From a virus (Duplodnaviria; Caudoviricetes), in the IMG/VR virus record IMGVR_UViG_3300031555_003626, positions 169,330-233,329 of that record: DNA of 64,000 nt; one strand, 5' to 3'. Below, in pieces: positions 20,257-20,411 of this stretch. The notes beneath the pieces are model-generated. The model did not search any database. It saw only the letters and a program-made list of their open reading frames with translations, and was not told where the DNA came from. How positions within the stretch are numbered: position 1 is the stretch's first letter; each line of letters begins with the position of its first letter. Made by a program: the position numbers and the translations under genes.

Positions 20257-20411
20257 GCTCCTGTGGCGGAATAGGCAGACGCTGTGGACTTGTTTGAGTA
20301 GTTTAATGTAAAACAAGTCCGCAAGACTGATGTGAGTTCAAGTCTCATTTCAAGCACCAAAAATCCACTGCCCGTAAGGGCGTACCGGTTCGAGTCCGGT
20401 CAGGAGCACCA
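20257..20411 (+). tRNA. tRNA-Leu(UAA) interrupted by nested 68-nt mini-tRNA (20292-20359)
   Basis: Removing the insert restores GTGGA-CTT|AAAA-TCCAC; long variable arm; ends ACCA. Confidence 0.8.

Follow-up and report, generated by a model that had tools for sequence, protein, structure and literature searches.

What becomes of a tRNA gene whose anticodon loop is interrupted by a smaller element that itself looks like a tRNA, and how might such an element be removed from the transcript? This question is raised by the tRNA-Leu(UAA) gene of a large phage, the whole 233,329-base virus record of which is called G000 here. The window, meaning the whole stretch of DNA that was analysed, consists of the last 64 kb of that record, has a G+C content of 37%, uses the standard code, and carries a tRNA array at about 19,700-27,540. 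The reading favoured on balance is that the insert is a protein-spliced intron which marks its own ends by pre-tRNA mimicry and which would be processed by RNase P, a nuclease cutting after CCA, and a phage ligase. Judged from the gene and its relatives, precise excision of the insert is very probable, while the assignment of the single steps to enzymes is less certain.

The insert and its host gene

The preliminary description had placed a 68-nt mini-tRNA between positions 34 and 35 of tRNA-Leu(UAA), with an acceptor GTTTGAG/TTCAAGC, a D arm, a shrunken arm, a T arm and an A-CCA end, and with flanks that rebuild the loop CTTAAAA. Each of these elements is present at the place given for it (Table 1), and excision restores the loop CUUAAAA together with a perfect cloverleaf. 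Deletion of 20292-20359 yields a type II tRNA-Leu(UAA) with an ARAGORN score of 119, for which the minimum free energy (MFE) structure is the perfect cloverleaf, and ARAGORN run with -i calls a 68-nt intron in tRNA-Leu(taa) by itself. An alternative junction, CUUG/AAA, leading to Ser(UGA), was ruled out, as the tRNA body is that of a Leu tRNA (A73) and the inner acceptor would break.

Table 1. Features discussed in the text, with positions in the window unless G000 or another record is named
Feature	Position	Strand	Remarks
tRNA-Leu(UAA) 5' exon	20257-20291	+	acceptor 5' strand, D arm, anticodon stem 5' strand, C32-U33-U34
tRNA-shaped insert, candidate intron, 68 nt	20292-20359	+	from its own +1 G to its own CCA
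Inner acceptor, 5' strand	20292-20298	+	7/7 pairs with 20349-20355, one G-U
Inner D arm	20301-20314	+	stem 20301-04/20311-14, 4 bp, 6-nt loop, no GG; U8-A9 before it
Stub arm in the anticodon-arm slot	20316-20328	+	stem 20316-19/20325-28, 4 bp, 5-nt loop
Inner T arm	20332-20348	+	stem 20332-36/20344-48, 5 bp, 7-nt loop TTCAAGT
Inner acceptor, 3' strand, with discriminator A20356 and CCA 20357-59	20349-20359	+	putative 3' splice site after 20359
tRNA-Leu(UAA) 3' exon	20360-20411	+	A35-A38, anticodon stem 3' strand, long variable arm, T arm, acceptor, A-CCA
Competing 12-bp helix	20284-20322	+	20284-20295 with 20311-20322; covers the 5' junction
tRNA-Gln(UUG) insert, 63 nt, G-CCA	21516-21578	+	after position 35; host 21482-21618
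tRNA-Lys(UUU) insert, 123 nt, A-CCA	22153-22275	+	after position 35; host 22118-22316
GOLLD RNA	26165-26678		within the tRNA array; Rfam match
Polynucleotide kinase-HD (Pnk-like) gene	16457-17383	+	upstream of the tRNA array; possible end-healing partner
T4 Rnl1-family RNA ligase	G000 C1:131804-132994		outside the window
Second RNA ligase, PF09414	G000 C1:143412-144041		outside the window
445-490-nt insert loci	G024 C1:11644-12175; G025 C1:147039-147573; G026 C1:88857-89400; G020 C1:18117-18671, 19527-20090		

The folding energy of the isolated 68-mer is unexceptional (z = -1.0), and a 7/7 acceptor combined with a 5/5 T stem at the positions of the insert arose in none of 200,000 dinucleotide shuffles, so that the evidence for its tRNA shape is geometric. 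With a 7-bp acceptor on a 5-bp T stem, a 7-nt loop, G at +1, U at -1 and a 3' RCCA, the insert displays the features of a bacterial RNase P substrate; cleavage inside the host anticodon loop is a prediction from these features and is uncertain for this copy. As a tRNA in its own right the insert looks unlikely to function, given the 4-bp stem and 5-nt loop of its stub arm and a D loop devoid of GG, and ARAGORN did not call it. Among the inserts surveyed below, a complete tRNA of that kind is seen only in L135.

Orthologous loci were collected through the neighbouring 659-aa gene (17635-19614), which adjoins the array and has no Pfam match, TROVE included. Diverged inserts occur at the orthologous Leu(UAA) site in L004, L005, L049, L015, L152 and L222, and inserts of relatives at this site measure 102, 67 and 52 nt. 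The gene is uninterrupted in L007, L010 and L013, and the anticodon arm of L007 is the arm of the predicted spliced product. An assembly chimera or a chance duplication in the repetitive tRNA array might be suspected from the many pattern matches of the survey below which are joins of a tRNA and a fragment without a nested host. This explanation is refuted and its probability is negligible: an independent assembly (L079) holds the same 155 bases as 20257-20411, diverged orthologous inserts sit at the same site, and the insert matches none of the tRNAs of G000. These comparisons indicate that the insert is real, conserved, and part of a widespread phage family.

RNA folding had been proposed as a check of the nested structure, and its outcome was divided. 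The MFE structure of the isolated insert is the cloverleaf as described, whereas that of the precursor buries the 5' junction. In the nearest-neighbour model the nested fold of the precursor lies 8.6 kcal/mol above the MFE, the largest gap among the inserts compared, and U34 is paired with an A in the helix that covers this junction. The junction duplex reaches -19.8 kcal/mol in the window copy versus -7 to -10.5 in the other Leu inserts, where the junction helix is only weak and most inserts fold nested. A role of the helix as a conserved switch was unsupported, since at this strength it is specific to the window copy. In the folding model the competing helix counts against splicing through the nested fold in this copy, which may be a slow or regulated allele; alternatively, the helix may be overridden by tertiary contacts and protein binding.

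The competing helix also favours a different explanation, according to which the host tRNA is never rejoined. The useful product would then be the released CCA-ended mimic, or a nicked or unspliced precursor, as a decoy that draws anticodon nucleases or defences which sense tRNAs; or the gene would be a misfolding, inactive allele. U34 tRNAs are a class often hit by anticodon nucleases, and U34 is enriched among the hosts of the inserts surveyed below (33 of 37, compared with 138 of 321 plain tRNAs in such genomes, the cases not being independent). However, no defects are seen in the host exons, whose anticodon stems differ among relatives by compensated changes; the canonical 7-nt loop is exactly restored every time, which would be purposeless if the halves stayed apart; and the interrupted Leu(UAA), Gln(UUG) and Lys(UUU) genes are the only genes of G000 for those anticodons. 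A lack of rejoining is accordingly regarded as quite improbable, and excision followed by ligation is retained as the favoured reading.

A family of inserts and the position of their junctions

The window contains two sister inserts, in tRNA-Gln(UUG) and tRNA-Lys(UUU), the latter sharing its T arm with the Leu(UAA) insert. ARAGORN -i miscalls both host genes, the Gln gene as Glu and the Lys gene as Gln; default annotation tools overlook tRNA genes with such inserts or assign them a wrong anticodon. The T arm of the window Lys insert was also seen in a free-standing tRNA-like element between tail genes of an unrelated phage (L001 6830-6902).

Further inserts were sought with a pattern of two T-arm-plus-CCA ends close together. 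In a boundary test, the insert length was set by ARAGORN from the host tRNA alone, and the acceptor start was then sought upstream of the inner CCA. For 39 of 51 cases, a count that includes near-duplicates, the host-set length equalled the inner +1-to-CCA length with 7/7 acceptor pairs, and no 7/7 acceptor appeared among the 51 at any other offset from -5 to +5. Once near-duplicates had been removed, 37 distinct inserts remained, which range from 44 to 847 nt, interrupt 12 types of host tRNA in large phages, and are not phylogenetically independent of each other. Many of the remaining pattern matches were the tRNA-plus-fragment joins mentioned above. Narrow patterns yielded few matches or chance ones, and of 55 metagenome matches only two were real (L037, L049). 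Among the ~120 bacterial-genome stretches listed, a real insert occurred in two MAG contigs only (L222, L258), which may be binned phage contigs, and no record with the Leu insert was found among the INPHARED phages.

The acceptor, T and D stems of the inserts covary. Every position of the inner acceptor shows several pair types across the 37 inserts. In pairs 1-4 of the inner T stem, on which the search pattern placed no constraint, 146 of 148 cells are paired, versus 28-49% when the partner is slid. Among the 32 longer inserts, a 4/4 inner D stem is present in 26 (6.7 expected from shuffles), U8 in 31, A14 in 30, and the D-loop GG in 15; about half of the inserts, the window copy included, lack this GG, which counts against the favoured reading. 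The anticodon-arm slot is free: it may be absent, reduced to a stub, filled by an intact Gly(UCC) arm (L135), or occupied by an HNH gene (L122, L191), and the family extends down to 44-nt minihelix inserts. In L135 (IMGVR_UViG_3300011008_000009, ~2150-2273) an intact tRNA-Gly(UCC) with an ARAGORN score of 119.5 lies after position 35 of tRNA-Asn(GUU), and this nested gene could possibly give rise to two working tRNAs.

Because the search pattern demanded CCA, the tails of inserts in whole genomes were checked without this requirement. Seven further inserts were found, all with a 4-nt overhang, which ends in CCA in five, CAA in one and CCG in one. Across inserts, no constraint is seen on the base with which the 3' exon begins, and this freedom, together with the constant length of the overhang, points to a cut by position at the 3' end.

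The intact tRNA-Gly of L135 suggests that the inserts descend from real tRNAs. Their mobility is suggested by near-identical ends in different hosts, namely Leu in the window, Lys in L007 and Gly in L104, by patchy presence among close relatives, and by the carriers of HNH genes. The family would probably have arisen when a whole tRNA was inserted into an anticodon loop and HNH-carrying versions spread by homing, with the window copy as an ORF-less derivative.

The Leu insertion had been described as lying one base earlier than in the Gln and Lys genes, which is correct (after 34 versus after 35), and it had been proposed that the cut sites are set by the inner structure and not by the host loop position. 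The first half of this proposal is borne out at the DNA level, where the boundaries travel with the inner structure, while the second half is too strong, as the host loop matters too. Among the 37 inserts, 15 junctions fall after position 34, 15 after 35, 6 after 36 and 1 after 32, with none at 33 or 37. The same host type can be split at varied positions: Lys(UUU) after 34, 35 and 36, Ile(UAU) after 32, 34 and 36 with A35 skipped, and Gln(UUG) after 34 and 35 with G36 skipped. Together with the coincidence of lengths, this variation argues that the boundaries follow the inner structure.

The influence of the host loop is seen in the last base of the 5' exon (-1), which is a U in 30 of the 37 inserts, a C in five and an A in two. 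Host-by-position slots are occupied in 16 of 22 cases if they offer a pyrimidine and in 2 of 14 if they offer a purine (Fisher p = 0.0016); this and the related statistics take kindred inserts as (nearly) independent and are indicative only. Leu(UAA), split after 34 in all six distinct cases, is interrupted one base earlier since a pyrimidine is favoured at -1 and position 34 is its sole U. Bacterial pre-tRNAs and anticodons are U-rich in any case. The U bias at -1 agrees with the preference of wild-type RNase P RNA for U at this position (PMC10465520), and could also reflect how the inserts arose.

Inserts of a different kind were observed in tRNA anticodon loops of G020, G024, G025 and G026 (Table 1). 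They are 445-490 nt long, have short stems at their termini and an ORF inside, lack both T arm and CCA, and are possibly a second unexplained intron type. Phages of the kind considered here also carry group I-like introns, recognised by eye, in genes for Leu(UAA) and Lys(UUU) (G018 C1:203216-203678; G020 C1:22731-23550; L013 5095-5365), that of L013 having no Rfam match at E 0.01.

Candidate steps of removal and joining

On the favoured reading, host RNase P would take the 5' exon for a leader and cut at 20291/20292, leaving a 3'-OH on U34. An acceptor-measuring nuclease would then cut at 20359/20360, 4 nt past the stem, so that A35 would carry a 5'-phosphate, and the exon halves, held together by the host cloverleaf, would be sealed by a phage ligase of the Rnl1 or Rnl2 type. 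Considered singly, joining of the exons by a phage ATP ligase is likely, and RNase P as the enzyme at the 5' end only slightly less so. The weakest step would be the 3' cut, for which a host enzyme of the RNase Z type or of the RNase E/Y type is the candidate.

The products of RNase P carry 3'-OH and 5'-P ends, and both tRNase Z and RNase E leave a 5'-P downstream. Exon ends of the 3'-OH/5'-P kind would suit an ATP-dependent ligase directly, with no healing step, and would not suit RtcB. The conserved parts of the inserts, acceptor and T arm, are the parts read by RNase P and end-processing enzymes, and the insert ends coincide with maturation sites. Only three unpaired bases precede the insert and four follow it, and the host anticodon stem may therefore have to open for RNase P. 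Acceptor/T-arm hairpins are known substrates of RNase P (PMC10465520). Cleavage right after CCA is performed endonucleolytically by T. maritima tRNase Z (PMC3161902) and, on proline tRNAs, by E. coli RNase E (PMC5291269), but most tRNase Z enzymes are blocked by CCA (PMC3161902), which counts against the 3' step.

An ATP-dependent RNA ligase is encoded by all 12 insert-bearing genomes that were examined whole (G000 and 11 others), being of the Rnl1, Rnl2 or DRB0094 type, with a DRB0094-like protein as the ligase of three of the 11. RtcB occurs in 0 of 23 insert-bearing records versus 3 of 27 controls, and in G000 neither RtcB (PF01139), the splicing endonuclease EndA (PF01974), RNase Z, a CCA-adding enzyme nor RNase P RNA was found. 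In the complete relative G013, which has 29 plain tRNAs and no inserts, both RNA ligase and Pnk are missing. Other tRNA-rich phages that lack inserts, G011 and G043 among them, do encode RNA ligases, so that their co-occurrence with inserts signifies compatibility and a necessary factor at best, not proof.

The Pnk-type kinase is the sole RNA-related gene of G000 found in 10 of 11 insert-bearing genomes; it is also missing from the insert-less G011, and it often adjoins the ligase gene (G017, G020, G028, G034). This distribution fits equally well an explanation in which a true intron is cut at one or both ends by a dedicated metal-independent nuclease of phage or host that recognises the tRNA shape, after which Pnk-HD would heal and Rnl1 would seal the ends as in T4 tRNA repair. 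Cleavage after pyrimidines fits metal-independent nucleases. Yet Pnk-ligase pairs occur without inserts too (G043), and a tblastn search of the G000 ORFs of at least 80 aa against the insert-bearing genomes brought up no uncharacterised protein or dedicated nuclease common to them, the common matches being Pnk, topoisomerase, GIY-YIG/HNH-type genes and an AbrB-like regulator. With no EndA in G000, and with insert ends at normal tRNA maturation sites of which a new nuclease would have no need, a dedicated nuclease, although the main rival, is considered unlikely compared with the end-maturation enzymes of the favoured reading.

A small self-splicing or self-cleaving ribozyme, in the form of a shrunken group I intron, was considered because of the position of the insert, as U34/A35 is also where cyanobacteria and plastids have the group I intron of their tRNA-Leu(UAA). 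The 5' exon also ends in U, and the group I-like introns of G018 and G020 noted above lie in Leu(UAA). At 68 nt, and 44 nt in relatives, the inserts are too short for a group I core, the Leu insert ends in A and not in G, no Rfam intron or ribozyme matched it at gathering score or at E up to 5, and all conserved features of the inserts are tRNA features. A ribozyme is thus very improbable.

Comparison with known tRNA introns and genomic surroundings

Known tRNA introns are removed by ribozymes (group I or II) or by EndA/TSEN enzymes. The 'enigmatic' tRNA introns of Lak megaphages are likewise short anticodon-loop inserts that are not group I introns and that have intron-less alleles in relatives (Devoto et al. 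2019, PMC6784885, Fig. 4, Table S6), and the Lak Thr(UGU) intron was noted to 'encode a possible tRNA' (PMC6784885). An inner tRNA-like fold is common to the Leu insert and this Lak intron. In the Lak introns of Table S6, inspected by eye, the inner acceptor is preceded by a hairpin-containing leader of ~25-30 nt and the 3' end is not CCA, whereas the Leu insert runs exactly from +1 to N-CCA. A mechanism, a family survey or an HNH-bearing form was not given by Devoto et al. (PMC6784885). In the openly searchable full-text literature, tRNA-shaped phage introns are not described beyond that study, nor is a combination of end maturation and ligation demonstrated as splicing, and a 2026 jumbo-phage review leaves tRNA introns unmentioned.

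The insertion point U34/A35 is shared with the group I intron of tRNA-Leu(UAA), and the group I family likewise includes carriers of homing endonucleases (bacterial and phage tRNA cases, PMC3984707). In contrast to group I introns, the Leu insert has no P3-P9 core (at least ~200 nt), terminal omega-G or U-G wobble, and tRNA-shaped inserts are also found after 32, 35 and 36. The archaeal and eukaryotic EndA/TSEN introns are likewise short anticodon-loop inserts, and the known ones are removed by protein before the exons are ligated by RtcB or Trl1. They lie at 37/38, whereas the inserts described here are centred on 34-36 (0 of 37 after 37), have no BHB in their folds, mark their ends by an inner tRNA shape, and in G000 occur in a phage without EndA or RtcB. 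In tRNA punctuation and end maturation, RNase P and, after CCA, tRNase Z or RNase E cut at the same sites at which the insert ends, but punctuation releases the flanks and joins none. T4 repair by Pnk and Rnl1 excises nothing; the homologues of both enzymes in G000 would be able to seal breaks in an anticodon loop.

Taken jointly, the observations have about an even chance of reflecting a fourth route of tRNA splicing, in which mobile tRNA-shaped introns spread by HNH homing, are cut by RNase P and a post-CCA endonuclease, and are followed by exon joining with a phage ATP ligase and release of a CCA-ended mimic, with the junction helix as an element that could time splicing. If true, this would be a new splicing logic in bacteria, built on tRNA-shaped intron ends, end-maturation enzymes and a 5'-P/3'-OH ligase. 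It would explain how the phage tRNA introns labelled enigmatic in 2019 are removed, and the RNA ligases of tRNA-rich jumbo phages would have a regular task. At 155 nt, the precursor is of a size suited to direct in vitro work.

Several further features were recorded around the array. An AbrB/MazE-fold regulator and the Atlas neighbours of the 659-aa gene weakly suggest a phage host among the Bacillota. In three animal-gut metatranscriptomes, 5-9% of words matched, which gives no indication of habitat or expression. The same gene block is repeated, partly diverged, at both ends of G000 (C1:1-14500 and 215000-233329), leaving the tRNA array untouched, and suggests an over-assembled circular genome or a strain mixture. 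A long ORF-free RNA with a tRNA-like 3' end (C1:158430-158573), kept in G003, has no Rfam match at E 0.01 and is not RNase P RNA. Directly 3' of the tRNA-Leu(UAA) gene, an ORF-free structured stretch without Rfam match (20414-20920) terminates in CACCA.

A bulged terminal stem with the motif TATTTCT occurs in seven copies, three of them at 19716-20130 and the others near 17476, 27116, 27196 and 27310. Those three enclose a domain of T arm, acceptor and D arm in permuted order and give weak Rfam matches to YrlA (Y RNA-like); a bacterial-type Y RNA is a likelier identity for them than a permuted tRNA. An HNH-like free-standing gene (24742-25218) has its stop codon inside tRNA-Leu(UAG). Finally, tRNA-Tyr(GUA) at 22532-22694 has an intact anticodon loop and a variable arm with a branched expansion of ~84 nt, which is kept in L006 with compensated changes, and a second, normal Tyr(GUA) gene lies at 24349.
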